NCBI GenBank assembly: GCA_016867315.1
Contig: VGJV01000005.1
Span: forward strand, 1 to 54,782
Direction of reading: 5' to 3'
Source: Candidatus Liptonbacteria bacterium
GTDB taxonomy: Bacteria > Patescibacteriota > Minisyncoccia > UBA6257 > 2-01-FULL-56-20
Length of the DNA stretch: 54,782 bases
Every line of letters begins with the position of its first letter. Within the stretch, counting starts at the first letter, position 1. Shown one piece after another: positions 5,690-40,156 of this stretch. The notes below the pieces were generated by a model that saw only the letters and a program-made list of their open reading frames with translations, ran no database searches and was not told the origin of the DNA. A program made the position numbers and the translations under genes.

Positions 5690-5841
5690 ATTCACAGTAT
5701 AGATTGAAATAGGAAACGTTTAAAGAAGAGACCTGAGGAGCTTTGTAGTTGTTCCAATTAGGGTGAAGCGAATACCGCTTCTAGTTTTGAATCTTTAGGT
5801 TTGCTAGCGCTAACCTAACCACTCAAAAACTACGACAATTC

Positions 5842-7429
<1,588 letters not shown>

Positions 7430-12925: not shown

Positions 12926-13033
12926 ATGGTTCAGAGACTAATCTTAGAAATCCGAGCCGGCGCAGGCCGCCTGCGCAAGCTCCGGCGAGCCTCGCTCGCC
13001 TCGCTGCGAAGCGGGCCTTACTTAATATTCTAA
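12926..13033 (+). other. 35-codon upstream ORF: duplicated prfA 5' end fused to a palindromic element
   Basis: [35 protein letters not shown]; the first 14 codons match prfA ([14 protein letters not shown]) using different codons; the stop lies 4 nt before the prfA ATG. Confidence 0.7.
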
Positions 13034-13037
13034 AATT

Positions 13038-21303: not shown

Positions 21304-21309
21304 TCGCGT

Positions 21310-21354
21310 TCATTATGCCATTCTATTTTCTATATTTCTAATCTCTATTTTCTA
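21310..21354. repeat. 45-bp direct repeat copy A (stop codon + 7-bp tract + -10 box)
   Basis: 44/45 identical to 40042-40086. Confidence 0.9.
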
Positions 21355-23133
21355 ACTAACCTCTGCTTGATAGCAGGTCTCACAATACACCGTCTCAGGC
21401 CTATCTGGCGCATAGGAAGTTTCGAATGAAACTTCACAGTGATCATTTCCATGGCTGTGACTCGCGGAATTTTTATACACTCCATTTTCCGAAACCTGTC
21501 CCGAACATGCACATTTTCTCTTCCAAAGTTTAATGGGATTCCGCTGCCGGAGCCGCGCATAATGGCGACAACTGGGACATAGGCGAGGCAAAGGAATATT
21601 CATCTGCCGGTAAAATTGGAGTTCCGCCTGAATTATCTTAAAAGCCTTCGTACATTGTTCCGTACAGGCTCCATTGTGTTCACACTGTATGATTTCGTTC
21701 ACGATCGAATCAGGCACTTCCGCAATCGTGCGCGGAAGATGCGCAGATGTCTTTGTTGGCTCATAATGTCGATCTTCCGCTTCTTTGAATATATATCCTT
21801 CCGCAGATGCTTGCTCCTTTGTTATAGGAAACATTTCCTGCGCGATGGTTTCGTTATAAGCAAAAGGGCTGAGTTCCGCAGGGAAGAACTCTCCAAATTT
21901 GTAAATGCGGCCTTTCTTGTCGATGTAAGGCTTTTGCTCCATATGCTCGATAAGCTGGGGCACCATTGCTTCGTATTCCTCTTTCGAATACTGCTTGTTC
22001 AAAATGCAGTATTGCTTATTGCGCATCCCCACGCATCCGAAAAGATATGAGCAGTTATGATTGTTATAGGAATAATAGATATCGTGGGAATCAAACGTGA
22101 ATCGTGAGAAAAACACCTTGCTTCCCGGGTAAATTGTGGAACATTCATATCCCAATTCGGTATTTTTTCCTACCCGATCCACGTCCATACTGTCCTGCAC
22201 TTTAGAGTATGCAAGCCAGGTATTGACACAGTCCTCCGCGCCTCCGAAAACATCGAAGCAATATTTGCAGTTTTTCGTTTGCTCAAGATTGTCTCCGGTT
22301 GAATTCGTGGCGTGCACCATGCGTGCAAACCGTCGCGGGAAATCCAATTTATGCTTTTCGAATCGTTCCCGAATTTTTTGCACTGATGCGACATTACTGA
22401 TATCGAATTCCTTTATTTTCTCTAAATATTCTTCCTTGGTGTACTGCTCGTTAAAAATACAATAGGACTTATTCTTCAAATTCACACAACCGAGGCAATC
22501 GTGGCAATTGTAGCAGTTGAAAAGAAAGGCGGAGTTGTAACATCCATCACAGTAACGACTATAAAGAAGACGAGAACAGGAAATGCAATCCACCGTTTCA
22601 TAATTGAATTCGCATTTCGAGATCCAATACGTATCCGCACACTCTTTACTCGTGAAAGAATAGGTGGAGTAAAGCGTATTCTCATTGAAATCCCCGCCGA
22701 ATACCAGGTAGCAGTTTTTATTCCCTTCGGTAATGCTGCAATACTCGCTATTTACCGGATTGATATTTAAAAGCGCGATATCAGGCACTTCTGTCCAAAG
22801 TTCCTTGAGCTGCGTGAAAAACGGCTTTGAAAAATCTACGTCGCGCGCATAGGTCGAAGCGTCCCAGTTATTCCCCCACCATTCTTTATGGCAATACACC
22901 CGCTGAGGATTATCGGGCGAGAAAATGGAGATCATCTGCTCGTTATGCCCCGGCGCTTGGCACGTTCGCTTATAGAGCGTGCGCTCGTTTCGATATGCCA
23001 TCCGTCGCTGCACCCGACAATCAAAACAAAACGTCGGCGCAGGAATTTTGAGTTTTTTAAAGAAATCAAAGTCTTGAGCGTTCAATTGAAACGCTCGCTT
23101 ACAATTCTGACAAGTTTTTATCTCTGTTTCCAT
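21352..23133 (-). CDS. Cys-rich multi-zinc-ribbon protein, paralog 1 (CPR family of unknown function)
   Basis: METEIKTCQNC...VPxPTFCxxCR...GCVxLxNKxYCIxNxQY twice...LPRLCPSCR...SYAPDRPETVYCETCYQ; true start ATG 23133. Confidence 0.9.
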   Translation of the reverse strand: METEIKTCQNCKRAFQLNAQDFDFFKKLKIPAPTFCFDCRVQRRMAYRNERTLYKRTCQAPGHNEQMISIFSPDNPQRVYCHKEWWGNNWDASTYARDVDFSKPFFTQLKELWTEVPDIALLNINPVNSEYCSITEGNKNCYLVFGGDFNENTLYSTYSFTSKECADTYWISKCEFNYETVDCISCSRLLYSRYCDGCYNSAFLFNCYNCHDCLGCVNLKNKSYCIFNEQYTKEEYLEKIKEFDISNVASVQKIRERFEKHKLDFPRRFARMVHATNSTGDNLEQTKNCKYCFDVFGGAEDCVNTWLAYSKVQDSMDVDRVGKNTELGYECSTIYPGSKVFFSRFTFDSHDIYYSYNNHNCSYLFGCVGMRNKQYCILNKQYSKEEYEAMVPQLIEHMEQKPYIDKKGRIYKFGEFFPAELSPFAYNETIAQEMFPITKEQASAEGYIFKEAEDRHYEPTKTSAHLPRTIAEVPDSIVNEIIQCEHNGACTEQCTKAFKIIQAELQFYRQMNIPLPRLCPSCRHYARLRQRNPIKLWKRKCACSGQVSENGVYKNSASHSHGNDHCEVSFETSYAPDRPETVYCETCYQAEVS

Positions 23134-23137
23134 TGTT

Positions 23138-24907
23138 CTATACCACCTCCGCCTGATAGCATTGCTCGCAATACACAATCTCAGCTCGTTCAGGCGAGTA
23201 TGATGTCTCAAAACTATTAGGACACACTCCCTCCTCATGGAAATGCACGGCTGAATTTTTATACACTCCGTTTTTAGACATTCCCCCAGCACACACACAT
23301 TCCCGCTTCCAAAGCTTCAAAGGATTCCGATGTTTTGTTCTTTGATAATGGCGGCAATTGGAACAAAGGCGAGGTAAGGGAAGAGAAAGCGTCCTGTATA
23401 GTTGCATCTCGAGAGGGATGACCTTGAAAGCAGTAGAGCACTGTTCCTCGCACTTCCCCGCATGAGCACATTCGATAACCTCGCCGGTAACACTCTCCGG
23501 AACATCAGTGATCCGATCAGGGATATTTGAGGAAGCGAGTGTGATTGTATACTGACGCGCCTCGGGATCTCTCCAAGAAAACCCTTGATGCACCGCGCTT
23601 TCCTTAGTAAGAGGAAAAACTTCTTGAGCCACCGTTTGATTGTAGGAATAAGGAGAAAGTTCGGCGGGGAAAAAGTCTCCGTAGCGGTATTCCTTGCCCT
23701 GTTGATCCCGATAAGGCATTGCGTTCATATGCTCGATTATCTTTGCGCGCAACGTTTCGAAGGATTCCTTCGAATATTGCTTGTTCAAAATACAATATTC
23801 TTTTTGCCGCAACCCTACACAGCCAAAAAGATTCGATGATCCCTCACACGCATCGATATAAGAGGAGTGTGCATCCAACCAACCAAGATGAGTACTCACC
23901 AAATGATACCCCTGAAAACAACCGATGCTATCGTAACAAAGTTCGCTTTTTTCGACTGCTACCCACACATCCTCGCAATCCCTGGCCTTATTGCCATGAA
24001 TCAAAAACTTGCAATCCTCGAGCTCCCGGGAGGAAAAACAGTCAGAAGAATTTTTGGAAAAGCTTATGTCATCCCCTGTAGTCCGCACATTCGAAATCCC
24101 GTGGTAATACTTTACCGGAAAAGTAAGACAAAACCCTAAAAATTCCCATTGAAGCTTCTCGAATCCCGCGTGCGAATCGAGCTTTAGTTCTTTTATTCTC
24201 TGTTCATACTCTTCTTTGGAATATTGCTTATTAAAGATGCAGTAGGACTTATTGCGCAATCCCACTGAAGCTACGCAATCGTGACATCCAGAACAATCTC
24301 GGGAAAGAAAAAGGTTATAAGAATCTTTACAGTCCGAGCAAAATGCAGAGCGAGAAACCTTTTGATAATTCGTGAGCTCCACCGACCATTCACACTCCCG
24401 CGAATGCATAAGATCAACTGAGTTTCTGGAAAGGTGCGAGTTATAAAGATACGCACAATCTTCGTCATTATCACTCACAAACGTGAGATAACAATTCTTA
24501 TTGTATCCCGCGCCATTCACATACTCCGAGTTCACATTATTGAACACGAGCGCATATTGGCGCGGCACCATAATTTGAAGCTCGCGAAATTGAGTAAGAA
24601 ACGGCCGGGAAAAATCTACCTCTCTGCCGTATGAAAGCGGATCCCACGAATCTCCATGGTAACAATCACTGCAATAGACCGGAAAAGGTTTATCCGAAGA
24701 AAACACGGAGATAAGCGACTTATTGCATTTCGCGCACACCCGCCGGAATAAACTCCTTTCATTTCTCCAAGTAAGTCTCCGCTGCAGTCGACAAGAAGGA
24801 CAAAACGTAGGCGCCGGGACCTTAAGCCTTTCAAAAAAAGCAAAGTCCTCCGGCTCGATCGAAAACTCGGTTTTACACGCCTGACATTGTTTAGTTTCTG
24901 TATTCAT
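23138..24907 (-). CDS. Cys-rich multi-zinc-ribbon protein, paralog 2
   Basis: Same architecture; start MNTETKQC (24907) or MGIEM (24919). Confidence 0.9.
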   Translation of the reverse strand: MNTETKQCQACKTEFSIEPEDFAFFERLKVPAPTFCPSCRLQRRLTWRNERSLFRRVCAKCNKSLISVFSSDKPFPVYCSDCYHGDSWDPLSYGREVDFSRPFLTQFRELQIMVPRQYALVFNNVNSEYVNGAGYNKNCYLTFVSDNDEDCAYLYNSHLSRNSVDLMHSRECEWSVELTNYQKVSRSAFCSDCKDSYNLFLSRDCSGCHDCVASVGLRNKSYCIFNKQYSKEEYEQRIKELKLDSHAGFEKLQWEFLGFCLTFPVKYYHGISNVRTTGDDISFSKNSSDCFSSRELEDCKFLIHGNKARDCEDVWVAVEKSELCYDSIGCFQGYHLVSTHLGWLDAHSSYIDACEGSSNLFGCVGLRQKEYCILNKQYSKESFETLRAKIIEHMNAMPYRDQQGKEYRYGDFFPAELSPYSYNQTVAQEVFPLTKESAVHQGFSWRDPEARQYTITLASSNIPDRITDVPESVTGEVIECAHAGKCEEQCSTAFKVIPLEMQLYRTLSLPLPRLCSNCRHYQRTKHRNPLKLWKRECVCAGGMSKNGVYKNSAVHFHEEGVCPNSFETSYSPERAEIVYCEQCYQAEVV

Positions 24908-24950
24908 TTCTATTCCCATTACTATACTCCCATTTCTTGTTTTTCTTCCA

Positions 24951-24982
24951 CTATTTTCTTATTCGCGCGAATAAGAAAATAG
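24951..24982. repeat. Perfect 32-bp palindrome
   Basis: CTATTTTCTTATTCGC|GCGAATAAGAAAATAG. Confidence 0.9.
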
Positions 24983-25001
24983 CCTAATATAAGTCACCGA
25001 T

Positions 25002-25400
25002 TTAGTAATACGCCAACTCGAGCTTTATGCCATCCGGATCGGCAAAAAACACGGCGTAGTAACTCTCAGTATATTCAGGGTATTTTGCAGGCGGATCAAA
25101 AATGAAAACTCCCCTTTCTACGAGGAACGCATGCACGTCATCCACTTCTTGAGGCGACTTTGCCTTAAAACAGAAATGATGTAGCCCCGGTGCTCCAAAT
25201 GCATAGGGATGATTTTTCACTTCCGCTTGCTCGATCCAAATCCCGAACCCTTCGGGAGTTTTGAAACCCACGCAATCCACCTCATCCAGCACCTGCGCGT
25301 ACCCAAGCTTCCCAAAAAGCGCGGCATAAAACGGCGCGCTCTTTTTAAGATCGCTTACTGCTAACTTGATATGTCCCGCCGGATCCTTGGATTCAGTCAT
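25002..25400 (-). CDS. VOC/glyoxalase family protein
   Basis: GHIKLAVSDL, GLHHFCFKAKSPQEVD, YYAVFFADPDGIKLEL. Confidence 0.92.
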   Translation of the reverse strand: MTESKDPAGHIKLAVSDLKKSAPFYAALFGKLGYAQVLDEVDCVGFKTPEGFGIWIEQAEVKNHPYAFGAPGLHHFCFKAKSPQEVDDVHAFLVERGVFIFDPPAKYPEYTESYYAVFFADPDGIKLELAYY

Positions 25401-25409
25401 GGTATTTTC

Positions 25410-25685
25410 CTATTCGCGCGAATTAGCAATGTGAGAAGAAACAAGCGAGACTACCTGAGGCAAAGGGTTGCTCAAACGGTAATATACAGTGAGCCCGTCT
25501 TGACGCTTATCCACCACATCAATCCTATGCAAAAGACCGAGATGTTTAGAAGTAGAAGTGAAGGAAAGCGAAATATGCTCCGCGATATCCGCCACTGATG
25601 CCTCCTCTCGTTTCGAAAGCATCTGAATAATCGCGAGTCGACGACGGTTCGCAAGTCCCTTAAAAACCCTTTCGAGCCGCTTCAT
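25410..25685 (-). CDS. ArsR/SmtB family transcriptional regulator
   Basis: FKGLANRRRLAII..L......VADIAEHISLS..STSKHL..L....VV...QDG..VYYRL. Confidence 0.92.
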   Translation of the reverse strand: MKRLERVFKGLANRRRLAIIQMLSKREEASVADIAEHISLSFTSTSKHLGLLHRIDVVDKRQDGLTVYYRLSNPLPQVVSLVSSHIANSRE

Positions 25686-25719
25686 TAGTTTTTATTGTAG
25701 CATTTCTCGACCACTACAA

Positions 25720-25759
25720 TTCCTTATTTTCTTATTCGCGCGAATAAGAAAATAAGGAA
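25720..25759. repeat. Perfect 40-bp palindrome, same core as 24951-24982
   Basis: TTCCTTATTTTCTTATTCGC|GCGAATAAGAAAATAAGGAA; a degenerate third copy lies at 25403-25428. Confidence 0.9.
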
Positions 25760-25769
25760 AATCAGTTTT

Positions 25770-26885
25770 TCAATTGCCTCTACTTCTTCGAGTGTTTTTA
25801 AGTGCTTCTATGCCCGGCAGTTTCTTTCCAGCCAAAAACTCGAGCATCGCGCCGCCGCCCGTCGAGATAAATCCGAATTTTTTGTCGAGCTTATGCTTCT
25901 TCAAAAACATGACCGTTTCTCCCCCACCCGTCACTGAAAGTGCTTTTTTATTCGCGACCACTGCCTTCACAATCGCGAGATTCCCTTCGTCGAATGGCTT
26001 TTCTTCGATGCGCCCCATCGGTCCGCTCCAAAGAATAGTCTTGGCTTCGCTGATGTAGTCCGCAAATTCCTCTACCGCCTTCGGCCCAATATCCAAAATC
26101 GCGCCGTCTTTCACCTTCCAATCAAGCGGCGCGATCACTTTTCGCATTTTGGCAACTACCTGAAGCGCCTTTTTGTCTTTTGGATTTTCATCCCGTTTCG
26201 AATTTCCCACATCGATGCCACGGAGCGCCAAGATTGTATTCGCCGCCGCCCCACCCAAAAGAAAAGCGTCTGCTTTAGTTTTGAGTGCCTGTATTACTCC
26301 GAGCTTATCTTCCGCTTTGCCGCCGCCCAAAATTACCACCAAGGGCTTCTTCGGTTTCACGGATACTCGCTCGAGAGTTGCAATCTCCTCCTCCAATCCC
26401 AGGCCGGCATAACTCGGCAAAAACTCTTCGACCCCGGTCACCGAATCTTCTTCCCGATGCGAGACCGCAAACGCGTCGTTTACAAAATAATCCGCGAGCG
26501 AGGCAAGCTTCCGCGCAAGCTCCGGTTCGGGCGTCATCTCCTCCTTCAAAAACCGGATATTCTCGAGCAAAAATATCGCACCTTTCGAAGTTCGATGAAT
26601 TTCGCTTTTAATTTCCTCAAATCGAAAATGAGGAATAAACTGCACGGATTTATGAAGCAGTCGCGTGAGTCGCAACGCATCTTTCGCCAGGCTCCATTCC
26701 ATCTCTCGTCCCAAGGGCCTCCCCTTGTGACTCACGACCACGACCGAATTAGCCACGCTTTGGAGTAAGCGCACCGTGGGAAGTGCCGCCTGCAATCGCC
26801 AATCATCTTCAGTATTAAAATCGAGCCGCAACAGCGCGACTCCGCTCAACTTCCCCTTTGGAGTTTTACTCAAAAACCTGATCAT
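25770..26885 (-). CDS. pgk: Phosphoglycerate kinase
   Basis: LRLDFN, SHKGRP, LLENIRF, NDAFAVSHR, LGGGK..DK, GGGET, ISTGGGAMLEFLAGKKLPG; true start ATG 26885. Confidence 0.95.
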   Translation of the reverse strand: MIRFLSKTPKGKLSGVALLRLDFNTEDDWRLQAALPTVRLLQSVANSVVVVSHKGRPLGREMEWSLAKDALRLTRLLHKSVQFIPHFRFEEIKSEIHRTSKGAIFLLENIRFLKEEMTPEPELARKLASLADYFVNDAFAVSHREEDSVTGVEEFLPSYAGLGLEEEIATLERVSVKPKKPLVVILGGGKAEDKLGVIQALKTKADAFLLGGAAANTILALRGIDVGNSKRDENPKDKKALQVVAKMRKVIAPLDWKVKDGAILDIGPKAVEEFADYISEAKTILWSGPMGRIEEKPFDEGNLAIVKAVVANKKALSVTGGGETVMFLKKHKLDKKFGFISTGGGAMLEFLAGKKLPGIEALKNTRRSRGN

Positions 26886-26892
26886 CTCAATG

Positions 26893-26920
26893 CTTCTATT
26901 ATAGCAAGGTATAATAGAAG
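26893..26920. promoter_or_regulatory. Palindromic back-to-back -10 elements for pgk and the ndh-like gene
   Basis: CTTCTATTATA-GCAAGG-TATAATAGAAG gives TATAAT on each strand. Confidence 0.65.
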
Positions 26921-26922
26921 AC

Positions 26923-28206
26923 ATGTCGGGGAAGAAAAACGTCGTAGTGTTGGGCGCCGGCTTCGGCGGCCTTCGCGCTGCGGAACTGCTTGCGAAAAAA
27001 CTCCGCAAAGCCCGTCTTACTGACCGCTACGAAGTGATTCTCGTCGACCGGAGCGAATATCAAACCTATACTCCGCTTCTCTACGAAATCGCGACGACCT
27101 CCAAAGAAACCGCGAATGCGTGCGAACTTCTGAGCGTGGCGACCTATCCCATTCGTTCACTCGTGAAATCCCTTCCCGTTACTTTTCTTGCGAAAGAAAT
27201 CAAAGAAATCGATGCTGAAAAAGGCGTAATTCGCTTTGGAGATATCGACGAACTCCCCTTCGAACACCTCCTCCTCGCCTTGGGCGCGGAAACCAATTAC
27301 TTCGATATTCCCGGCCTCAAAGACCATGCCCTCCCGTTAAAAACCTTTATCGATGCCATGAAGATCCGAGATAAGGTATGGATGCTCGCCATGGAAGGCC
27401 AAAAAATAATAAGGATCATAGTAGGCGGCGCAGGGCCATCGGGAGTAGAAATCGCCGGCGAATTCAAAGCATGGTGCGGCGAATTGGAAAAAGAATTGCA
27501 GGCGTGCAGTTTGGAAGTGATTCTCGTCGAAGGCGCGCCCACAGTGCTCCCGGGATTTGATGCTCGAGTGGTGGACCAAACCACCATAAGGCTCAAAAAT
27601 CTAGGAGTAGAAATCCTCACAAATGAAAAAATCACTTCCGTAGATAAGGAAACTGTAGTACTCGGAAGCGGCAGAAATTTACCCTATGACGTCTGTCTCT
27701 GGACGGGTGGAGTGAAAGGCTCTTCTCTACTCAGGGAACTACCGCTCGAACTCGATCCGCGCGGTCGGCCGCTCGTAAATGACACCATGGAATGCAAAGC
27801 GCTCACCAATTCCATTCTTCACTCCAAAATCTACGGCATAGGCGATGCAGTGTGCTTTATCGATCCTCGCACCCAAAAACCCATTCCGGGCATCGCGCGC
27901 GCGGCGATTGATCAAGGCACCGTCGCCGCCAACAATATTTTTGAAGAAATACAGCAGAAAGAATCAGGAATTAGGAATCATGAATTATGCAAATACGTCC
28001 CGGGAGATTTTCCATACGTCGTGCCGATCGGGGGTAAATTCGCGCTCGCGAAAATTGGCCCGGTCATCATCCGGGGATTTTTCGGCTGGGTACTCAAAGG
28101 CCTTGTGGAATTGAATTATCTCCTTTCGATAATGTCCCTATTTCGGGCATTAAAAATCTGGTTCAAGGGCCTCAAAATCTTCATCCAAAACGACCGGTTG
28201 GGATGA
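26923..28206 (+). CDS. ndh: Type II NADH dehydrogenase-like FAD-dependent oxidoreductase
   Basis: VVVLGAGFGG, YTPLLYE, LALGAETNYF.IPG, GAGPSGVEIAGE, WTGG, IGD, amphipathic C-terminus. Confidence 0.82.
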   Translation: MSGKKNVVVLGAGFGGLRAAELLAKKLRKARLTDRYEVILVDRSEYQTYTPLLYEIATTSKETANACELLSVATYPIRSLVKSLPVTFLAKEIKEIDAEKGVIRFGDIDELPFEHLLLALGAETNYFDIPGLKDHALPLKTFIDAMKIRDKVWMLAMEGQKIIRIIVGGAGPSGVEIAGEFKAWCGELEKELQACSLEVILVEGAPTVLPGFDARVVDQTTIRLKNLGVEILTNEKITSVDKETVVLGSGRNLPYDVCLWTGGVKGSSLLRELPLELDPRGRPLVNDTMECKALTNSILHSKIYGIGDAVCFIDPRTQKPIPGIARAAIDQGTVAANNIFEEIQQKESGIRNHELCKYVPGDFPYVVPIGGKFALAKIGPVIIRGFFGWVLKGLVELNYLLSIMSLFRALKIWFKGLKIFIQNDRLG

Positions 28207-28207
28207 T

Positions 28208-29029
28208 ATGCTTCAATACATGAACAAATTCCAGAAAGATGTTGTCCTGGGAGTAATAGGGGTGGCGGTTCTCCTAGTAGGAATTGTGTATTTCTTCCCA
28301 AAGCCCCAGCCCACCACCTCACCTTCGGCCGCTGATCTTCCGCTTCCCCCCGCACAAAGCGCCGTGAGCACTTCCAGCTCCCTCACCATTGAAGGCCTCT
28401 CTGCCAACATCACTCGGCAAATGTTTCCAAATGCCTCTGCCAAAGAACTCGCTGAACTCACCACGCTAGGAGTTAAAATGGAACTCAAGAAAACCTTTCA
28501 AGGAAATTTTTTAGATAATGAGGAAAAGGAAACGCTCTATGTAATAGAAGCCGAAGGAATTCCCCATGCAGGAGGTTTCTATCATGTATTTCTCAAAGTT
28601 TTCGACGCACAGGGAAATCTCCGCACGCCAAGTACTCCGGACATCCGAAATGCCATCAGTTTTCCCCGCCAACTAGCCGGAGAATTCGGAGAGGATGGAG
28701 GAGATATTGCCATATATTCCTGCAAAAGCACCGATTACGTCTTCTCTGGAATATATGGATTGATCAATGGTTTCGGACATGCAAACGGGAAAGCTCTACT
28801 TTTAAAGATAGAACAGGGCACTTTTAATACGGTCCAAACTTTCGAGAGTACGACTCCTAATCAAAATCTGATTTTCAAACCCCTGGAAAACAAAATCGCA
28901 ATATACGAAAAACAAACGATGGGGAAAAACTACGTTTGTCCAAACAGCTGTTTGGATGACATGCAGCCATATGTACTCGTAAAAATAGGGGAGAAAAAAT
29001 GGAATACGGCGTCCTGCAGGTTTGAATAA
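28208..29029 (+). CDS. Membrane-anchored exported hypothetical protein
   Basis: N-terminal TM helix, Pro/Ser-rich linker, soluble domain with paired Cys. Confidence 0.75.
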   Translation: MLQYMNKFQKDVVLGVIGVAVLLVGIVYFFPKPQPTTSPSAADLPLPPAQSAVSTSSSLTIEGLSANITRQMFPNASAKELAELTTLGVKMELKKTFQGNFLDNEEKETLYVIEAEGIPHAGGFYHVFLKVFDAQGNLRTPSTPDIRNAISFPRQLAGEFGEDGGDIAIYSCKSTDYVFSGIYGLINGFGHANGKALLLKIEQGTFNTVQTFESTTPNQNLIFKPLENKIAIYEKQTMGKNYVCPNSCLDDMQPYVLVKIGEKKWNTASCRFE

Positions 29030-29128
29030 TTCTTCTAATAGAAAAAAGTGGAACGGCTTATGAGACCGTTCCCCTCCTTATTTAGAAGAAAAATCCTCGC
29101 ACTTGGAACGTATGGATTCCCTTGTACC

Positions 29129-30067
29129 CTATCTCGCTTGGGAGCGAACAGTTCCTCGTGCCGGGAATATGAAGTTTTCCCCTTGTGCCCCTGCTATTTC
29201 CAATATAGCATCGTGCCGCGGAAAAGTAGAACAGTGATACAGATTCGCGAGCTCTTCAGAAGTAAACACCAACACATGCCGCGCCTTAAATTCTCGATTG
29301 AGATATTCCCCGAGAAGTCCCTTGGGATTCCGCAACGTCACCCGTTTTAACGCATTCCTTCCCTGCCCTTTAAATTTCTCGAAGCTCGAAAGAACTTCGT
29401 CCAAAATACCGCGAGCTCGAAATTCGGAACCCGCGGAGACCACGACGCGAGCATTCGCCTCAAGGAGCGGTTCTCCCAGTTTCACATGCGTGACGTTCGA
29501 ATTTTCCGAACTGCGTACGGAAACCCGAGATTCGCTCAATCGTTTAGGCTGGACTACAAACTGCACCGCTATTCCTTCCCCGATCGCCGCCACCTCTCGC
29601 AAAGCGAGAAGCACATCTTTAAACATATCCGCCCCCAGTTCTCCATACGTGGGAATCGGCAACGCCGGATGTTCTTTTTGAGTGAGATACGCTCCCATCG
29701 CCACTCCATGCGGATAAAATATGATGTGATTCTCGTGGATCTCCTCCACGCAAAACTTCCCAAAAAGCGCACGCAGTACTTTTAGGGCTTTCCCGCCTAC
29801 TTCGGTCCGTACCCCCACATAAAAATGAATCCGATCGCCCACATGCGGCACGGCGACTTCCAGCAGGAAAGGTTTTTGGAAACCCGCAAGCGTCCGAATG
29901 AGCTTCTCGGCTATAGCGATCTCCGCCGCGGCATCTTCTTCTTTAGTAGAAATTAAAAAGAGTTTCCAAGGACTCCGAAGTCTCCATGCTCGAAGGGCAT
30001 CGATGATGAGATAAAACCCTAACGCCGTCGCAATTACAGAAAAAGTTCCGAGGATAAGCGTTTCCAC
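29129..30067 (-). CDS. Membrane-anchored protein resembling the N-terminal region of CPR TraG/VirD4-like ATPases, with no ATPase domain
   Basis: TM helix, then FLLEVAVPHVGDRIHFY, ALPIPTY, EGIAVQFVVQP, EANARVVVSA, EELANLYH; no Walker A. Family resemblance is from memory, not from a search. Confidence 0.55.
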   Translation of the reverse strand: METLILGTFSVIATALGFYLIIDALRAWRLRSPWKLFLISTKEEDAAAEIAIAEKLIRTLAGFQKPFLLEVAVPHVGDRIHFYVGVRTEVGGKALKVLRALFGKFCVEEIHENHIIFYPHGVAMGAYLTQKEHPALPIPTYGELGADMFKDVLLALREVAAIGEGIAVQFVVQPKRLSESRVSVRSSENSNVTHVKLGEPLLEANARVVVSAGSEFRARGILDEVLSSFEKFKGQGRNALKRVTLRNPKGLLGEYLNREFKARHVLVFTSEELANLYHCSTFPRHDAILEIAGAQGENFIFPARGTVRSQAR

Positions 30068-30086
30068 TACTTCATTCTAACACTAT

Positions 30087-30155
30087 TGAATTTGGAATTG
30101 TGAATAGTGAATTGTGAATCACTCCTCAATTCTAAATTCTCAATTCTCAATTCAA
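30087..30155. repeat. Inverted pair of 7-bp tandem tracts (hairpin) after paralog 3
   Basis: GAATTTG GAATTGT GAATAGT GAATTGT GAATCAC ... AATTCTA AATTCTC AATTCTC AATTCAA. Confidence 0.85.
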
Positions 30156-30160
30156 GGATT

Positions 30161-31942
30161 TCATACCACTTCTGCTTGGTAACAAGCCTCGCAATAGACA
30201 ATTTCTGGGCGTTCCGGCGCGTAGGAGGTCTCAAATTGCACAGGACAATGACTATCACCATGACTATGACGAACGGAATTGGCATATACCTTCGTTTCCG
30301 ATTGCGCGCCCGCGCATTGGCATTGTCGCCTAAAGAATTGGGGCAAATTCCTTTTTTCCAAACGGCCATAATGGCGGCAATTGGGACACATACGGGGCAA
30401 AGGAAGATTAAATCGCTTCAAAAAAGCTAGTTCCTGGGGAACAATTCGAAACGCCAAAGTACATTCCTCCTCGCATTCCCCGCCATGCGCACACCCGATA
30501 ACTTCCTTAAGAATTTCTTCGCTCGCCTCCTCCACTCGGTCAGGTAACTGCTCCGCCTTAATAGTCGCGGTGTAATTTCTTTTTTCTTCTTCTCTCCACA
30601 TAAGCCCCTCGGCTTTGACCTGCTCGCGAGTTTTAGGAGATATTTCATGCGCCTCGGTAATGTTGTAGGAAAAAGGAGAAAGTTCCGAGGGGAAAAATTC
30701 GCCGTATTTATAAATTCTCCCCATACGGTCGCAATACGGAACATCGGTCATATGTTTCATAATCTTGGGAACCAGCGATTCGTACTCTTCCTTTGAATAT
30801 TGCTTGTTCAAAATACAGTACTGCTTCTTGCGAAGGCTCACACATCCGAAGACATCCATCGATGCGGGACAAAAAATCGAATATTGCACATTTTTACATC
30901 CGCCGAAACAATTCCACGAAAACCGGACATTATACGTTTGATCTCCGCACACCAACCCCTCGTAGATAAGCTCCGAGCCGGCTCCCCAGTTGGAATAATC
31001 GTAACAGTCCTTCACGGGCCCCGAAAGCAGATTGAGGCAAAATTTAGAATCCTCAATACCCTTCACGCGCCAGCAGTGCTTCGCATTTTTGGAATTATAA
31101 ATATAGTCTCCGCTCACATTTACATTCTGAAGGCCATGCATGAATTTCACCGGGAATGTGAGCCACTGCTCTTCCGCCTGTTCGCGTAAATTTTGAAAAG
31201 CTTTCCACGATCCCAAATTCAGCTCTTTTACCTTTACGGCATATTCCTCTTTCGTATAAGGCACATTGAAAATGCAATATGACTTGCTCCGCAACCCCAC
31301 GCATCCCACGCAATTTGAGCAACCCACGCAATCTTTCGAAAAAAGAACGTCCTGACAGTCCTCGCAATTTACCGAAAAGAAAGTTTTGTAACAACGCGAA
31401 GCATTCACATTTCCATACCCGAATTCACAGGCATCGGTCATATGACTGTCCATACAATTCTTTGAGCCTCCATCCCAAATCAAATATGCCGAATCTTCGG
31501 TTTTTGCGACTGCCCGCGCGAAATAGCAATTCTTGATATATGAAGCGTTGGTGCAGTATTCCGAGTTCACTACGCTTTGAACAGAATGTGCGGGAAAAGG
31601 AATAGCCTGCATAAGTTCATAAATTTGCTCCATAAACGGCCGCTTCCAATCAATATCTCTCCCGTATTCCAAAGGGTCCCACCCGTCTGAATACCAAAAG
31701 TCTTTTTCATAAACAGAAACGGGGGATTCCGGCGGGAAAGCGGAAAAAATCTGCTCTCCGGTTTTCAAATCCTGTTTCTTAAAAAGATGCCAGGTATTTC
31801 TCCAAGACATTCGACGAATCATCCGGCATTGCGGACACCACGTCGGCGGCGGCACTTTTATCTTTTCGTAAAAATCAAAATCCTCCGATTCAATCGTGAA
31901 CTGTTTTTTACATGACTGACAATTCCTGCTTTCTGAATTCAT
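30161..31942 (-). CDS. Cys-rich multi-zinc-ribbon protein, paralog 3
   Basis: MNSESRNCQSC...IVYCEACYQAEVV. Confidence 0.92.
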   Translation of the reverse strand: MNSESRNCQSCKKQFTIESEDFDFYEKIKVPPPTWCPQCRMIRRMSWRNTWHLFKKQDLKTGEQIFSAFPPESPVSVYEKDFWYSDGWDPLEYGRDIDWKRPFMEQIYELMQAIPFPAHSVQSVVNSEYCTNASYIKNCYFARAVAKTEDSAYLIWDGGSKNCMDSHMTDACEFGYGNVNASRCYKTFFSVNCEDCQDVLFSKDCVGCSNCVGCVGLRSKSYCIFNVPYTKEEYAVKVKELNLGSWKAFQNLREQAEEQWLTFPVKFMHGLQNVNVSGDYIYNSKNAKHCWRVKGIEDSKFCLNLLSGPVKDCYDYSNWGAGSELIYEGLVCGDQTYNVRFSWNCFGGCKNVQYSIFCPASMDVFGCVSLRKKQYCILNKQYSKEEYESLVPKIMKHMTDVPYCDRMGRIYKYGEFFPSELSPFSYNITEAHEISPKTREQVKAEGLMWREEEKRNYTATIKAEQLPDRVEEASEEILKEVIGCAHGGECEEECTLAFRIVPQELAFLKRFNLPLPRMCPNCRHYGRLEKRNLPQFFRRQCQCAGAQSETKVYANSVRHSHGDSHCPVQFETSYAPERPEIVYCEACYQAEVV

Positions 31943-31974
31943 TCTATTTTCTACTTTCTATTTTCTAATTTCTA
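31943..31974. repeat. 7-bp tandem tract forming the whole paralog 4-3 spacer
   Basis: mRNA sense: TAG AAATTAG AAAATAG AAAGTAG AAAATAG A ATG. Confidence 0.88.
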
Positions 31975-33702
31975 GGCCACTTCTCGTTGATAACACTCTT
32001 CGCAAAACACCGTTTCTTTCCGATCGGGCGCATACGACGTATCGAATTCATTCGGACAATGTTCCGTTCCGTGGAAATGCTTTCCGGTGTTTTTCCAATT
32101 ATTATTTTCCGAAACAGCTCCACTACACATACATTTCCGGCGCCAAAGCTTCCTCGGCAACCGCAACGCCAACCGACGTCGGTAACGGCATTCGGGACAT
32201 AGTCGAGGAATCGGGACCTTGAACCGACGGTACAATTCCAACTCTGGCTGAATAATGTTGTAATTTCTTTTGCATTGCACGCACGCGAGCGCTTCTTTTA
32301 CTATTGAATCGCCTACATCCTCAATACGATCGGGAATTTTTTCCGAAGAAAGAGTTTCTTTTCCGAATGTACCTGAAACTACTTCTTCCCACTTATACCC
32401 GCGCCCTTGAGCCTCCTTCCGAGAAATCGGCATATAGATATGCCCCTGGGTTTCGTTATATCCGAAAGGACTAAGCCCGGGAGGGAAAAATTCTCCATAT
32501 TCCCCCGTCTTTTTCATATGGTCGATGATCTTCTCTTTGAGCGTGGCGAATTCCTTCTCGTCATACCGCTTATTCAAAATGCTGTATTTCCCCGATTTGA
32601 GTCCCACACACCCAAAAAGATTTTCGGAATTGTGGCATGAATCGCAGTATTGGAGATGAGAATTGTCATAGCTTAAATGAGTAAACATCACGTCATAACA
32701 GCGAACCAATGCATGACACTCATAAAGCAACTCACACGAAAATCCGAAGTGATAACAGTCCATGGTATCTTTCGCATCCACTGCCACAATGATGTTCTTT
32801 GAATCCTGCATCCGCTCAGCATCGAACATAGTATGCCCGTTCTTGGAATTGAAAATGACGTTTCCCGAAACATCGTTTGATTTCTCGATAACGCCAAATC
32901 GGTGCAAAGCCTTCGACGAAATCATTTCAAGAAACGCATCATAAAGTTTCTCCCTCTCTTTATAGGAACTCAGCTGAAACTCTTTCATTTTCTCCATATA
33001 CTCTTCCTTCGTATATGGCTGATTCAAAATATGATACTGCTTATTTCTCAAGTTCGAAGAAAGGAAACAATTTGAACACCCCTTACAGTCATAGCAATAC
33101 AAACAATTCGCACAATCCCAGATGAATATCGAGTACTGACATTCGTATGAGCGATATGCATTGATACACTCATACATAAGCTCATTGCCATACTCGATGC
33201 GGTAGCAATCCATAGAATCGCGCCCCGGGAAAGTGTTCGTGGAATACAAAACATTCTCCGAATCAAAAACTCCAAAGCTTAAATAACAATTCTTGTTATC
33301 CGCCGCATGGTTGGTGTAATCGGAATTCACGCTGTTCTTCGTGAGAAGCGCAATGCGGGGCACCTTGAGTTGCAGCTCTTTAAATTGTTCAAAGAAAGAC
33401 CTCGAAAAATCAAAGTCCTGCCCATGATCTAACGCGCTCCACTTATCCGACCACCAGCACGGCGGACAATAAACTTTATAAGGCTTGTTGGGCGAATAGA
33501 TTGTCACCGTGCTCTTCCCGCAAAGGTCGCAGTTCCGGCGATAAAGCACCCGCTCATTCCGCCACGCTGCCCGCCGCCGTAAGCGGCACTCCGGACAACG
33601 CACGGGCGCAGGAACGTTGAACTTTTCGTAAAATCCGATATCGTCCGCCTCAATCGGGAATTCCACGCTGCATTCTTTGCAAATTCTTTTTTCCGGTTTC
33701 AT
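31972..33702 (-). CDS. Cys-rich multi-zinc-ribbon protein, paralog 4
   Basis: MKPEKRICKEC...TVFCEECYQREVA. Confidence 0.92.
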   Translation of the reverse strand: MKPEKRICKECSVEFPIEADDIGFYEKFNVPAPVRCPECRLRRRAAWRNERVLYRRNCDLCGKSTVTIYSPNKPYKVYCPPCWWSDKWSALDHGQDFDFSRSFFEQFKELQLKVPRIALLTKNSVNSDYTNHAADNKNCYLSFGVFDSENVLYSTNTFPGRDSMDCYRIEYGNELMYECINAYRSYECQYSIFIWDCANCLYCYDCKGCSNCFLSSNLRNKQYHILNQPYTKEEYMEKMKEFQLSSYKEREKLYDAFLEMISSKALHRFGVIEKSNDVSGNVIFNSKNGHTMFDAERMQDSKNIIVAVDAKDTMDCYHFGFSCELLYECHALVRCYDVMFTHLSYDNSHLQYCDSCHNSENLFGCVGLKSGKYSILNKRYDEKEFATLKEKIIDHMKKTGEYGEFFPPGLSPFGYNETQGHIYMPISRKEAQGRGYKWEEVVSGTFGKETLSSEKIPDRIEDVGDSIVKEALACVQCKRNYNIIQPELELYRRFKVPIPRLCPECRYRRRLALRLPRKLWRRKCMCSGAVSENNNWKNTGKHFHGTEHCPNEFDTSYAPDRKETVFCEECYQREVA

Positions 33703-33738
33703 ATTCTAGATTCTAAATTCTAGCTTCTAGATTCTGCC
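33703..33738. repeat. 7-bp tandem tract forming the paralog 5-4 spacer
   Basis: TTCTAGA TTCTAAA TTCTAGC TTCTAGA TTCTGCC on the plus strand. Confidence 0.88.
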
Positions 33739-35514
33739 CTAAACTATTTCCGCGTTATAACACTGCTCGCAATATACGATTTCTTTTCGTTCAGATGCAT
33801 AAGACGTTTCGAACTCGTTAACGCATGGAGCATCCCCGTGCGAGTGTACGGCAGTATTTTTATAAACCCCATTTGCAGACTGGCCTCCTGCGCACGAACA
33901 CTTTCGCCTCCAAAGTCGCAGAGGGTTTCTTGAACGAATTCGCTCTCCCCGACGGCATATCGGACACAAACGCGGCAATGGCAAATTGAATTTCTTTAAG
34001 AATTGAAGCTCCTGCGGAATAATCCGAAATGCAGTCGAACAATAATCACTGCATTTGCCCTGATGAGCACATTCGATTACCTCCTGGAGAATCGAATCGG
34101 AAACGTCAGAAATATCATCGGGAACTTCCCCAATTTTCTTTGTAATCTGATAAACTTTCCGCCCGCTCTCGTACCACGTGAATCCTTCCGCTAACGCCTC
34201 CTCCTTAGTCTTTGGGAAAAAGTCTTGCGCAGCCGATTCGTTGTATGCAAAAGGAGAAAATTCTGCGGGAAAGAACTCCCCGTATCCATATTTTAATCCT
34301 CGAGCATCAACGTAGGGCATTGTTTTCATATGCTCAATTATTTTCGGCACAAGCGCTTTATAATCCACCTCTGAATATTGTTTATTCAATATGCAATACG
34401 ATTTGTTACGAAGTCCCACACATCCAAAGATATTATTACAGTCGAAACAATTGTAGGAATATTGAATATCAAATCCTCCCCAAATAAGCGCGGAATAAAA
34501 TACCCTCTGCCCAGAAACGCTAAATACGTCGAGAAAAAGCTCTGAATTGTTCCAAACCACGAAGCCATCAGAACCATCTTTGACCCTATCAAACGAACGG
34601 TAGGTATGACGCACATTTTCAATATCGTTCCAAATACTAAAGCAATCGGAACAATTGCGAGCATTCAATATGTCATCACCCTTCACATTTTCTGACTTGA
34701 GAATTGTTGCAAATTTCCGAGGAGTGGAAAGTTTCAATGCTTCAAATTTCTCCCGTACCGCGCGAAGTCCATTTGCGCTTCCTAATTTCAAACGTTCCAG
34801 CTCTTTTAAATATTCTTCTTTGGAATATTGCTTATTGAAAATACAAAAGGACTTATTCCGCAATCCTACGCACCCGACACAAGAGCTGCAATTCCGACAG
34901 TCATATAAAAAAGTCGAATCGCTGCACGCTACACAATTCTGCACAAACCGGACTCCATTGCATTTTTCCGCATCAACGACTTCGTACGAATATTCCATGT
35001 CGCGTGACTGGAATGTATCGAAACACTGACGGCTACGGGGAGCTCCTCCAAACATATATGCGCAATCTTCAGACTGCGTAGCGCCGCCTATGAAATAGCA
35101 GTTTTTTAAATCCACTGCGTAATTCGCGTAATCGCTATTTACTAAATTCTTTTGTATGAGATTAGGATGCGGAACAGCCGATAATAATTCCTTGATCTGC
35201 GAAAAAAAGGGCTTAGAAAAATCCGGATCCACTCCATATTGCATAGGATCCCACGCATCACTTTTCCAATATTCATTTACATAAACTTTATAGGGCCGCT
35301 CCGGCGCATACATAGAAAGAACCTCTTTTCCAGTCGCATCGCACTTTCGGCGATACCAAATACACTCGTTCCTGAAAAGCATTCGCCGAATAGTGCGGCA
35401 TTTCGAACAAAATGTCGGCAAGGGCACCTTAACTTTTTCATAAAAATTCAAATCCTCGGCCTCAATGGTAAATTGAGCCTTACAGTTTTGGCACGATCGC
35501 GTTTCCGCGTTCAT
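33739..35514 (-). CDS. Cys-rich multi-zinc-ribbon protein, paralog 5
   Basis: MNAETRSCQNC...IVYCEQCYNAEIV. Confidence 0.92.
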   Translation of the reverse strand: MNAETRSCQNCKAQFTIEAEDLNFYEKVKVPLPTFCSKCRTIRRMLFRNECIWYRRKCDATGKEVLSMYAPERPYKVYVNEYWKSDAWDPMQYGVDPDFSKPFFSQIKELLSAVPHPNLIQKNLVNSDYANYAVDLKNCYFIGGATQSEDCAYMFGGAPRSRQCFDTFQSRDMEYSYEVVDAEKCNGVRFVQNCVACSDSTFLYDCRNCSSCVGCVGLRNKSFCIFNKQYSKEEYLKELERLKLGSANGLRAVREKFEALKLSTPRKFATILKSENVKGDDILNARNCSDCFSIWNDIENVRHTYRSFDRVKDGSDGFVVWNNSELFLDVFSVSGQRVFYSALIWGGFDIQYSYNCFDCNNIFGCVGLRNKSYCILNKQYSEVDYKALVPKIIEHMKTMPYVDARGLKYGYGEFFPAEFSPFAYNESAAQDFFPKTKEEALAEGFTWYESGRKVYQITKKIGEVPDDISDVSDSILQEVIECAHQGKCSDYCSTAFRIIPQELQFLKKFNLPLPRLCPICRRGERIRSRNPLRLWRRKCSCAGGQSANGVYKNTAVHSHGDAPCVNEFETSYASERKEIVYCEQCYNAEIV

Positions 35515-35569
35515 TGAAACTTATTATTTTCTATTCCGGATCTTTCAGCAACCAGAGTACAATAAATTC

Positions 35570-38019: not shown

Positions 38020-38205
38020 TCAATTCACCCGGAGTTCATTCGGCAACGAGGATACTGTAAAAGCTTTTTGATAAGTACCTCGCTCATTTTTCGCAGGGAG
38101 GAGGGGTCTTCCTTCTACAGTATTGTGGAGTACCCTGGTCATGCACGGTTCTCACAAAAGGTGCAGCAAGGAATTGCCTCCCCCTGCGATAGGTTGTTTT
38201 CAACG

Positions 38206-38230
38206 AAAAAGCCCATGCTTACACATGGGC
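38206..38230 (-). terminator. Terminator after rplU
   Basis: GCCCATG/CATGGGC stem followed by TTTTT on the minus strand. Confidence 0.7.
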
Positions 38231-38240
38231 AAATTCTTTT

Positions 38241-38552
38241 TTAAATTTTCGTAATTTCCACCTCCGTAAACGACTGTCGGTGTCCCTTTTTCTTCTTCTG
38301 TCTCGTCTTCGAGTGATATTTGAATACGATTTTCTTCTTGTCCCGTGCCTGCCGTACTACTTTTCCTTCTACCGAAGCTCCTGATACATAGGGCGCTCCG
38401 ATCTGCACCGCCTCTCCATCCGCAGTAAGTAATACTTTGTCGAAGGTAACCGAAGCTCCCGCTTCCGCGTTAAGCTTTTCTACCTTCAGCTTTTCTCCCG
38501 CAGAAACTTTGTATTGTTTTCCACCAGTCTCAATTACAGCAAATTTAGTCAT
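38241..38552 (-). CDS. rplU: 50S ribosomal protein L21
   Basis: FAVIETGGKQYKV...GAPYV...KKKGHRQ.FTE..I. Confidence 0.97.
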   Translation of the reverse strand: MTKFAVIETGGKQYKVSAGEKLKVEKLNAEAGASVTFDKVLLTADGEAVQIGAPYVSGASVEGKVVRQARDKKKIVFKYHSKTRQKKKKGHRQSFTEVEITKI

Positions 38553-38638
38553 GGTATTTAGTAAAAATTAAGCCGGCTTGCCCCGTAGAATCCCGCAGGG
38601 ATTTGTACGGGGTTTCTATGACTGCGAATTTATCCATT

Positions 38639-38992
38639 TCAGTTGACATGTATGATAGCCGCAAACCAAATGAAAATCAAGATAGCGAAGAAAAACGTGC
38701 TTCCTACGAGAAACATCCCCAGATAATGCTTCCGATCAAGGAGCGCCGCTGCAATCGCGCTATTTACAAGAAGAAATAGCACCCAAAACCCTCCATTCAT
38801 AAGAATATATCCAAGCGTTCCCACCTCCGTTATCCCTGTCTTTTCGGTAAAGTGAATGATAAGCGGCTGGGAAATATCTCGAAGGACCATATACGCCCAC
38901 CCCATTCCCACGAACACCAAAAGAAACGAAAGGACGAGTAATACGGTCGCAAGCCTATGCCTCATAACCCAATTTCCGGTATTTCTAAACAT
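38639..38992 (-). CDS. Small membrane protein (3 TM), hypothetical
   Basis: Hydrophobic segments around PLIIHF; start ATG 38992 overlaps the galT stop region. Confidence 0.72.
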   Translation of the reverse strand: MFRNTGNWVMRHRLATVLLVLSFLLVFVGMGWAYMVLRDISQPLIIHFTEKTGITEVGTLGYILMNGGFWVLFLLVNSAIAAALLDRKHYLGMFLVGSTFFFAILIFIWFAAIIHVN

Positions 38993-39998
38993 CTTTTGCG
39001 CGCGAAGATTTACGCTCCCCACGAAGGAACGCTGCTCCCTCTTCCGGAAGCACCACATTCACATCCACCCCGGTGCTCAATTCGAATCCAGCCGGAATCG
39101 AAATCTTTGGGAAAATTTCAATATGCCAGTGATAATGACCATGTTGTTCTTTAGCCTCAAGCGGAGCCGTGTGAATGAAAAAATTGAAATCTGGATCATT
39201 CAAATTTTGCTTCATGCGGCGAAGCACTCCCTGGAGCACTTCTACGGCTCCTTTGATGTCCTTAATACTCGCCTCCTCAAACCGTGACACATGCTGGGTG
39301 GGATACACTCGTACCTCGAAGGGCTGCCGGGACACGAAAGGCGCCACTCCGATTGCCTGCTCATTACCCTCTATCACGCGAGTCCCCGCTTCCCATTCAA
39401 AAAGAAGCATGTCGCAATGCACACACCGATGCCGTTTCGCAAAATATTCCTTGGAACCCTCCAAAGAATGAGTCACATCTGGAGGAACAATCGGTAGCGC
39501 CAAAATCTGATAATGCGGGTGATAAAGCGATGCTCCGGCCGAAGGTCCCCAGTTCGCGAAAGTGGATACATAGCGCGAGCATCCATCCTTCGCAAATCGG
39601 CGGTACATTTTCTGCATCATGAGAAAAAGATTTACCGCTTCGGAAATCGAAAGCTCTGCTAAATTCTTCGTATGATCCTTGGTAATCACAAGATCATGAT
39701 GCCCGATTCCTTCAAGATACGAATAAGGCCCGTTGCGCATCTCCATAGCACACCAATCTTCTCTTTTAAGCGCCGGATATTTGTTCCGTATTACCGCGAT
39801 CTGCCACGGTCCTTTCGCGGGATATTGGGCGCGCAATGGCCAATTTCCAGAAGCCTCGAGATCTTCAAAGGGACACGTAGCCTTCGGAGATACGACACGC
39901 TTCTTCTTTTTAGGCAAAAAGTCATGCGGGCGCTTTCCTCGTTCGGGCGCCATAATGATCCAATCTCCGGAAACTAAATCTTGGCGAAGTTCACTCAT
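38985..39998 (-). CDS. galT: Galactose-1-phosphate uridylyltransferase (GalT/HIT family)
   Basis: SELRQD.VSG.W.I.A.ERGKRP, CPF, NKYPAL, GASLYHPHYQ, YHWHIEIFP, GFELSTG. Confidence 0.88.
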   Translation of the reverse strand: MSELRQDLVSGDWIIMAPERGKRPHDFLPKKKKRVVSPKATCPFEDLEASGNWPLRAQYPAKGPWQIAVIRNKYPALKREDWCAMEMRNGPYSYLEGIGHHDLVITKDHTKNLAELSISEAVNLFLMMQKMYRRFAKDGCSRYVSTFANWGPSAGASLYHPHYQILALPIVPPDVTHSLEGSKEYFAKRHRCVHCDMLLFEWEAGTRVIEGNEQAIGVAPFVSRQPFEVRVYPTQHVSRFEEASIKDIKGAVEVLQGVLRRMKQNLNDPDFNFFIHTAPLEAKEQHGHYHWHIEIFPKISIPAGFELSTGVDVNVVLPEEGAAFLRGERKSSRAKDV

Positions 39999-40041
39999 AG
40001 AAAGTAGGAAATAGTGAGTAGAAAGTGGAATCGACCCGCCC

Positions 40042-40086
40042 TCATTATGCCATTCTATTTTCTATATTTCTAATTTCTATTTTCTA
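40042..40086. repeat. 45-bp direct repeat copy B
   Basis: 44/45 identical to 21310-21354. Confidence 0.9.
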
Positions 40087-40110
40087 GTTAACTTCTTGCT
40101 GGTAACAATT
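40084..40110 (-). pseudogene. Relic 3' end of a Cys-rich paralog (NCYQQEVN*)
   Basis: Matches the family terminus CYQxEVx*; separated from paralog 6 by a palindromic GC-rich element (40115-40146). Confidence 0.7.
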
Positions 40111-40156
40111 TTATCCTCCTTCGCTAAAGCTACGACGAGACTCCGCATGCTCACTA

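Follow-up and report, generated by a model that had tools for sequence, protein, structure and literature searches.

The 54,782-nt stretch analysed here (the window, which is the entire contig C5 of genome G000, a Candidatus Liptonbacteria bacterium of 878,862 bp in 14 contigs of a metagenome-type assembly) carries two copies of a 45-bp unit, 18.7 kb apart, each attached to the 3′ terminus of a member of a Cys-rich gene family; at the second copy, this terminus is an orphan tail. Our preferred account, to which we give about an even chance, has three elements. The unit would be a spacer-plus-promoter module starting at a family stop codon (a generic heptamer tract and a TG-extended -10 box), one copy of which arose from the other by a copying event. 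The orphan tail would be part of a recurrent composite, consisting of a true tail, its stop, a hairpin insert of ~30 nt and a second tail. Finally, the 3′ ends of the family would be hot spots of short-tract exchange, a reading that draws on the divergence of second tails and on paralog turnover in congeners, with the 45-bp repeat as its by-product. All genes at issue lie on the minus strand; comparisons are with four congeners (G001–G004) and with loci labelled L0xx (L044, for example, is G004:C8).

G000 holds 13 members of the family. Six are within the window (564–593 aa, all full open reading frames (ORFs), each end of which weakly matches Pfam treble-clef zinc fingers) and seven on contig C3, all ending in the motif C-E-x-C-Y-Q-x-E-V-x-stop. 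Five full paralogs stand between the 45-bp copies. Paralog 6 lies beyond copy 2, where it is followed in turn by the elements of the composite:

40157–41851, minus strand: paralog 6, 564 aa, tail CEACYQKEVL-stop; orthologs in G001, G004 and G002
40142–40156, minus strand: left flank of the module (GCATGCGGAGT), conserved; the extra stops TAG TGA come before it
40113–40141, minus strand: degenerate hairpin insert of ~30 nt, core TAGCTTTAGCGAAGGAGGAT, recognised through homologues with good stems
40084–40110, minus strand: orphan second tail NCYQQEVN-stop, 8 codons, no gene body, in a frame that differs from that of paralog 6

The ~45 nt from the end of paralog 6 (TGA-TAG-TGA) to the orphan tail contain TAGCTTTAGCGAAGGAGGAT, and all three G000 copies of the hairpin 20-mer lie in this same setting, with a true family stop on one side and a second tail on the other. 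These second tails read NCYQQEVN-stop in the window, SCYQQEVVW... at C3 75064 and DACYKAEFL-stop at C3 80759. G001 repeats the pair of hairpin variant and tail up to three times in a row, and its spacer orthologous to that between paralog 6 and galT holds a hairpin variant followed by TGTTACCAAGTGTAA. A scan of public sequence for the hairpin followed by TGYTAYMA gave 11 loci, nine of which show the true family tail, the hairpin and then E-x-C-Y...stop. In all cases, the composite junction falls at a constant codon. A preliminary description of this DNA had taken the orphan tail for a relic; a reading as simply the remnant of one lost neighbour is not supported, as the hairpin-then-E-x-C-Y junction recurs three times in G000, in a congener and on nine public contigs.

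We conclude that the module spreads among family 3′ ends independently of the genes that carry it. Identity among the three G000 loci is 74–79% within the module, compared with 49–54% in the upstream 570 nt of coding sequence of the hosts; the host genes are not monophyletic; and two non-orthologous G001 paralogs from different clades share an identical final 58 nt of coding sequence plus hairpin.

Second tails diverge as coding sequence does. Comparing first and second tails of ten modules at the conserved E, C, Y, E and V codons, differences are distributed 4:1:26 over codon positions 1, 2 and 3 (third-position share 26/31), with 21 synonymous changes against 6 non-synonymous. This bias is significant under equal rates (P = 1e-8) and also if only the second tail decays freely (P = 1.6e-5). 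The stop at the tenth codon is kept in 9/10 modules, and a comparison of L047 with L049 shows 1, 1 and 7 differences between their second tails by codon position. A long target-site duplication created by hairpin insertion and followed by neutral decay is disfavoured by the same third-position bias (P = 1.6e-5). Translation of the second tail is unlikely because the two tails do not keep a constant relative frame (the same frame in L047, a one-base shift in L049, L050 and the window) and no conserved small ORF spans the second tail in the compared loci; readthrough, frameshifting and ribosome hopping are thus rejected as ways of reaching it. This leaves two readings, neither of them involving decay in place: second tails are functional tails displaced not long ago, or they are overwritten time and again by conversion from functional tails. 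Either would imply active short-tract exchange at family 3′ ends. The preliminary description was in this sense right to see a coding tail in the orphan, former or converted.

Two other 3′ ends on C3 deserve mention. A second tail, KECYNSEVA-stop (90313–90339), directly follows the stop of the paralog at 88532–90310 without a hairpin. The paralog at 69750–71467 has its final 44 codons in another frame, possibly through a frameshift or sequencing error; a 44-aa fragment at C3 71444, considered as a stand-alone relic, is the tail of this frameshifted full-length paralog and was rejected. The preliminary description had also drawn a parallel with prfA, whose layout matches that of the tail composite but whose palindrome is a different one: at window 12927–13040, a 14-codon duplicate of the prfA start, with synonymous-site divergence, runs into a GC-rich palindrome. 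The duplicate stops 4 nt before the true prfA.

The hairpin itself has a life beyond the composite. Its 20-mer is found in 17/41 related genomes (reversed control, 0), and homologues fold into a 7-bp stem, a GUA/GAA internal loop, a GC pair stack and a UUUA loop. Over the 28 distinct copies compared, pairing holds in 84% of cells and 16 cells show double changes, a result reached by 0/500 shuffles. The 14-nt loop GWAGCTTTAGCGAA is conserved, and the stems are variable and covarying; G000 alone has ~8–12 loop matches with varied stems (for example, C1 215368/215435, C2 120181 and C4 68296). The hairpin also enters genes in frame. A G004 paralog (L044) has it as an exact ten-codon insertion (ECAH-TAPTGALAKE-GG...) that is missing from p3, its ortholog in G000, and from every other paralog; in the L005 ORF, the insertion is on the opposite strand, again of ten codons when compared with the ortholog in G000. 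By its behaviour in these alignments, the hairpin is a small insertion element, and G-U pairs confined to its displayed strand hint at a role as RNA or as a single strand. A core match also occurs in a Bacteroidota genome, Niastella soli (L048). Rfam gave only weak chance matches to miRNA models for region 39900–40300, and we found no description of this 30-nt hairpin element in the literature or Rfam. A palindromic element between paralog 6 and the orphan tail had been described beforehand; the element is present, but the window copy is barely palindromic (z = +1.0).

The 45-bp unit occupies the other side of the orphan tail, with its first copy at the end of paralog 1:

40042–40086, minus strand: copy 2 of the unit, orphan-tail TAG stop, heptamer tract and TGGCATAATGA
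40044–40052, minus strand: TG-extended -10 box TGGCATAAT of copy 2, 45 nt upstream of the galT ATG (39998)
21310–21354, minus strand: copy 1 of the unit, paralog 1 TAG stop, heptamer tract and TGGCATAATGA
21312–21320, minus strand: TG-extended -10 box TGGCATAAT of copy 1, ending 8 nt before the DHH ATG (21303), a leaderless geometry

On the minus strand, the unit opens with TAG (at copy 1, 21352–21354, the stop of paralog 1), continues with AAAATAGAGATTAGAAATATAGAAAATAGAA and closes with TGGCATAATGA; its 34-nt heptamer tract is AAAATAG AGATTAG AAATATAG AAAATAG AA. Alignment reproduces the 44/45 match reported in the preliminary description, together with the anatomy given there of stop codon, tract and -10 box, placed after family stops and ahead of different genes. 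The sole mismatch is G/A at unit position 12, leaving a longest perfect run of 33 nt, and similarity extends beyond the 45 bp into the coding tails (71 nt at 85%). Copy 1 is flanked by ACGCGAATG on its DHH side and copy 2 by GGGCGGGTCG on its galT side. The 878,862-bp genome has no third copy with ≤3 mismatches, and the chance expectation of a second is ~5e-19.

A repeat of this kind in a metagenome-type assembly of 14 contigs could mark a misjoin, a possibility that had been raised at the outset and that we discount almost entirely. Several contig ends have exact 127-nt overlaps, which imply an assembler word longer than the repeat and longer than the 71-nt similarity, and both junctions are syntenic in congeners: the paralog 1 ortholog stands beside DHH, and the order PBP2, paralogs, galT is kept.

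Most of the unit is not particular to the family. At ≥31 G000 loci there are tracts made up of four or five TAGAAAN units, most of these tracts beginning at or a few bases from a stop codon and finishing at or just before the next ATG (between ribosomal protein genes, for instance). They form subfamilies of 4–17 close copies each, and near-identical copies (~31–33 of 34–35) are found at loci unrelated to the paralogs, as are the tracts nearest to the unit (C6 26707, 34/45; C4 2630, 32/45). Hence 34 of the unit's 45 bases are a generic dispersed repeat. Beyond the tract, the bases GGCATAATGA are common only to the two unit copies. Numerous copies unconnected with the family, named in the preliminary description as a finding that would overturn its reading, therefore exist for the 34-nt tract but not for the full unit. 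A 26-nt tract, AGAAATTAGTAATTAGGAATTAGAAA, is exact at four unrelated stop–start junctions (C3 106647, C6 8130, C6 9015 and C7 21859) and present at 16 loci with ≤3 mismatches, some sites being between ribosomal protein genes.

The two sites differ at 7/24 tail bases and at 1/45 unit bases, a step at the stop codon with P = 0.002 under uniform divergence. From this sharp change of identity and the shared GGCATAATGA, we infer that one copy recently replaced its counterpart, in one direction or the other, within bounds set by the stop codon and by a point 2 nt past the -10 box. The copying may have been short-tract gene conversion, or else recombination of the illegitimate kind; in either case, the event would be anchored on one side by the homologous family tail beside the unit and would stop 2 nt past the box. 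Searches for the unit's 31-mer in 12 relatives, public metagenome contigs and public genome contigs gave no match, and the orthologous congener spacers are composed of other units.

Might the unit instead be a small mobile element, tract and promoter together, whose copies are independent insertions at TAG stops? Both copies do begin precisely at TAG, and identical or nearly identical tracts stand at many unrelated stop–start junctions (the 26-nt tract at the four exact and 16 near-exact loci above). The GGCATAATGA end, however, is on two copies only, the 31-mer is missing from the 12 relatives and both public collections, and the unit has neither terminal inverted repeats nor a target duplication. 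With no inverted ends and two copies only, it does not resemble a miniature inverted-repeat transposable element or insertion sequence, and we regard mobility as quite improbable. Old shared ancestry, whereby the unit is the spacer of an ancient gene duplication whose identity is kept by promoter selection, strikes us as more doubtful still. One G003 paralog junction has 19 tract bases identical to the unit (AAATATAGAAAATAGAATG), showing that part of the tract is conserved between species, but promoters do not need 45 identical bases, the other G000 tracts and the congeners' orthologous spacers vary freely, and the adjoining tails are at family-level divergence (17/24). We retain recent copying as the origin of the pair.

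Paralogs have been gained, lost and relocated at both loci, to judge from the congeners, which vary at exactly the two places where the preliminary description had family members being replaced or moved. All four congeners have a family paralog directly upstream of DHH and keep the order PBP2, one to three paralogs, galT. The gene beside DHH in G002 is the paralog 1 ortholog; those of paralog 6 precede galT in G001 and G004, and G002's sits in its DHH array. The DHH genes of G001 and G002 lie inside a separate array of paralogs located on a different contig. Some 9.7 kb of G000 between p3 and the gene at 19735 (window 20482–30160; orf29129, two plus-strand genes, pgk, an ArsR–VOC pair, p2, p1 and DHH) are missing from that place in G002 and G004.

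Several observations weigh against the account given so far. By similarity to a second tail, the tail of its own gene ranks anywhere from 1 to 19 of 33. The 5′ arm of the window hairpin copy is decayed, and the copy fails to fold (z = +1.0). The downstream side of the unit is without homology between the two sites, so that ordinary two-sided gene conversion fits poorly. Last, G004 has a full paralog, pY (tail CYQQEIS-stop), exactly at the orphan-tail place between the paralog 6 ortholog and galT.

This G004 arrangement (pX, paralog 6 ortholog, pY, galT) is an argument for a simple lost neighbour at this locus: deletion of a full paralog that once stood between paralog 6 and galT would have left behind only its final 8 codons and its spacer, with the hairpin as a scar mark. 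The variation among congeners from one to three paralogs between PBP2 and galT agrees with such a loss, as does the coding-type divergence of the orphan tail, which suits a once-functional gene. Yet the junction falls at the same codon (hairpin, then E-x-C-Y) at ≥9 other loci in several lineages, and independent deletions would not share one end point to the base. The orphan tail moreover begins with a sequence (TAAAATTGTTACCA) homologous to second tails elsewhere (GAAAATTGCTACCA in G001 is one), and pY has its G000 ortholog in another place, C3 88532–90310. We consider a lost neighbour unlikely, though deserving of serious attention, and continue to favour the recurrent composite.

Both unit copies sit where a promoter would be expected. 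TGGCATAAT has the form of an extended -10 element at each (TGn before the hexamer, A at position 2, T at position 6), and a pattern scan found TAGAAA-17-CATAAT with TG at both. The motif TGN[CT]ANAAT is enriched in intergenic DNA (79/213 sites in 13% of the genome); 43 intergenic sites have a start codon on the same strand no more than 150 nt away, and in 23 of these the motif ends 6, 7 or 8 nt before the ATG, while the reversed motif has 0 sites within 15 nt of an ATG genome-wide. This class, of which window 25694–25702 is a further example, bears out the earlier assignment of the box as a -10 promoter element. The 16S rRNA 3′ end reads ...GTGCGTGGAACAATTAAACTG, without CCUCC (window ~5830–5860, minus strand), and AAGGAGG was for that reason rejected as a ribosome-binding site. 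Taken together, the 23 boxes at fixed spacing and a 16S rRNA without CCUCC make leaderless mRNAs and leaderless translation appear widespread in G000.

The 6–8-nt spacing holds at DHH (8 nt) but not at galT (45 nt). We infer promoter activity at both: the DHH mRNA begun by the box of copy 1 would be leaderless, and the galT mRNA begun by that of copy 2 would have a leader. The galT leader ends in one further element:

39999–40031, minus strand: reverse-orientation tract rich in pyrimidines, weakly partnering the forward tract (fold z = -1.4, non-significant)

No significant RNA fold was found for the galT leader (z = -1.4) or the whole spacer (z = +1.0). In G002, TGGTACAAT lies ~48 nt upstream of galT, between the forward and reverse tracts of another unit. 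The congeners' DHH genes are leadered, and the leaderless DHH arrangement is weakly suggested to be the derived state. At window 21303–21320, ATG GCA of the unit corresponds to the Met-Ala start of DHH in G004 (ATG GCT AAA AAG), and the DHH start region of G000 reads ATG GCA TAA TGA ACG CGA ATG AAA AAG. The -10 box may have arisen via a 15-nt change within an older DHH start.

The remaining features at and between the two copies are genes:

20482–21303, minus strand: DHH/DHHA1-family gene, downstream of copy 1 and putatively served by it
21352–23133, minus strand: paralog 1, 593 aa, tail CETCYQAEVS-stop; its ortholog adjoins DHH in G002
23138–35514, minus strand: paralogs 2–5 (23138–24919, 30161–31942, 31972–33702 and 33739–35514) and intervening genes
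25770–27008, minus strand: pgk, sole copy in the genome, inside the 18.7-kb interval
38985–39998, minus strand: GalT/HIT-type gene (galT), downstream of copy 2 and putatively served by it

Stable deletion of the 18.7-kb interval between the copies seems unlikely, since it contains the only pgk gene. recA is present in G000; a perfect run of 33 nt is near the lower limit for efficient homologous recombination. Elsewhere in the genome are seven pairs of exact 104–191-nt repeats, most ~1.5–1.7 kb and one 6.3 kb apart, which look inverted and resemble small elements with long terminal inverted repeats (C13 118–308/6452–6642; C2 121210/122944; C11 7207/8752; C4 74792/76404 and 100309/101999; C12 7179/8929; C10 123/1672). 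The first 132 nt of the window are repeated on C4 and C11.

Taken alone, the 45-bp repeat is an ordinary duplicated promoter spacer of modest interest; the composite and the leaderless-promoter rule are worth more. The composite is a recurrent 3′-end structure in a huge, unstudied protein family, with second tails that are coding-like though outside the gene. If these are displaced originals, they amount to a record of past 3′-end replacements and a route to studying how multigene families are remodelled in the Candidate Phyla Radiation (CPR). The hairpin, a 30-nt element entering genes in frame, is apparently undescribed. The promoter rule, an extended -10 box 6–8 nt before the ATG, is testable in an uncultured lineage without a Shine-Dalgarno system. 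A bolder idea, which we think is probably wrong, is a dedicated CPR process of tail swapping for this Cys-rich zinc-finger family: the hairpin would mark site-specific exchange at the codon before the last Cys-Tyr, with a new functional tail brought in and the old one pushed downstream, and 3′ units such as the 45-mer would provide a downstream anchor. If true, this would amount to a cassette system in miniature, one that has no recombinase gene of its own.

Parts of this arrangement have counterparts in known systems. Integrative elements such as e14 and phage 21 in Escherichia coli icd, and tRNA-targeting islands, replace the 3′ end of a gene and leave the old end behind. As in those cases, a duplicated terminus flanks the insert here and its divergence is mainly synonymous, but the insert between the tails is only ~50–75 nt and contains no recombinase gene. 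The tract recalls the short tandemly repeated repetitive (STRR) sequences of cyanobacteria, which are heptanucleotide tandem repeats. G000 likewise has runs of at least three tandem 7-nt units in many dispersed intergenic copies, often reaching from a stop codon to the next ATG; the difference is that the 45-bp unit runs 10 nt past the tract into a promoter box, and that this longer form has two copies only.

In Neisseria, the conserved Sma/Cla repeat lies at the 3′ ends of pilE and pilS, a cassette system of one expression locus and silent partial copies. The family studied here is similar in having a short conserved repeat just 3′ of its recombining members; it differs in that the unit accompanies 2/13 members and in that the window paralogs are full-length, with no silent cassettes. 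Sma/Cla is listed among the repeats of the pilE/pilS loci (PMC4023411).

Rickettsia palindromic elements are hairpin repeats inserted in frame in protein genes (PMC10969869, PMC1779305), and the G000-type hairpin is alike in lying in frame within genes and also between them, its stem kept by compensation. It is far smaller (30 nt, compared with ~100–150 bp) and has few copies per genome rather than dozens. In the G000 type, moreover, the loop is conserved and the stems vary, and the element is tied to the last ten codons of one family.

The promoter class finds its nearest parallel in mycobacteria, in which leaderless promoters with a TG-extended -10 box have been mapped (PMC4633059). The predicted G000 class of 23 genes shares with them a -10 box at a fixed 6–8 nt before the start and the lack of a Shine-Dalgarno sequence; the galT copy of the unit differs in its 45-nt leader.

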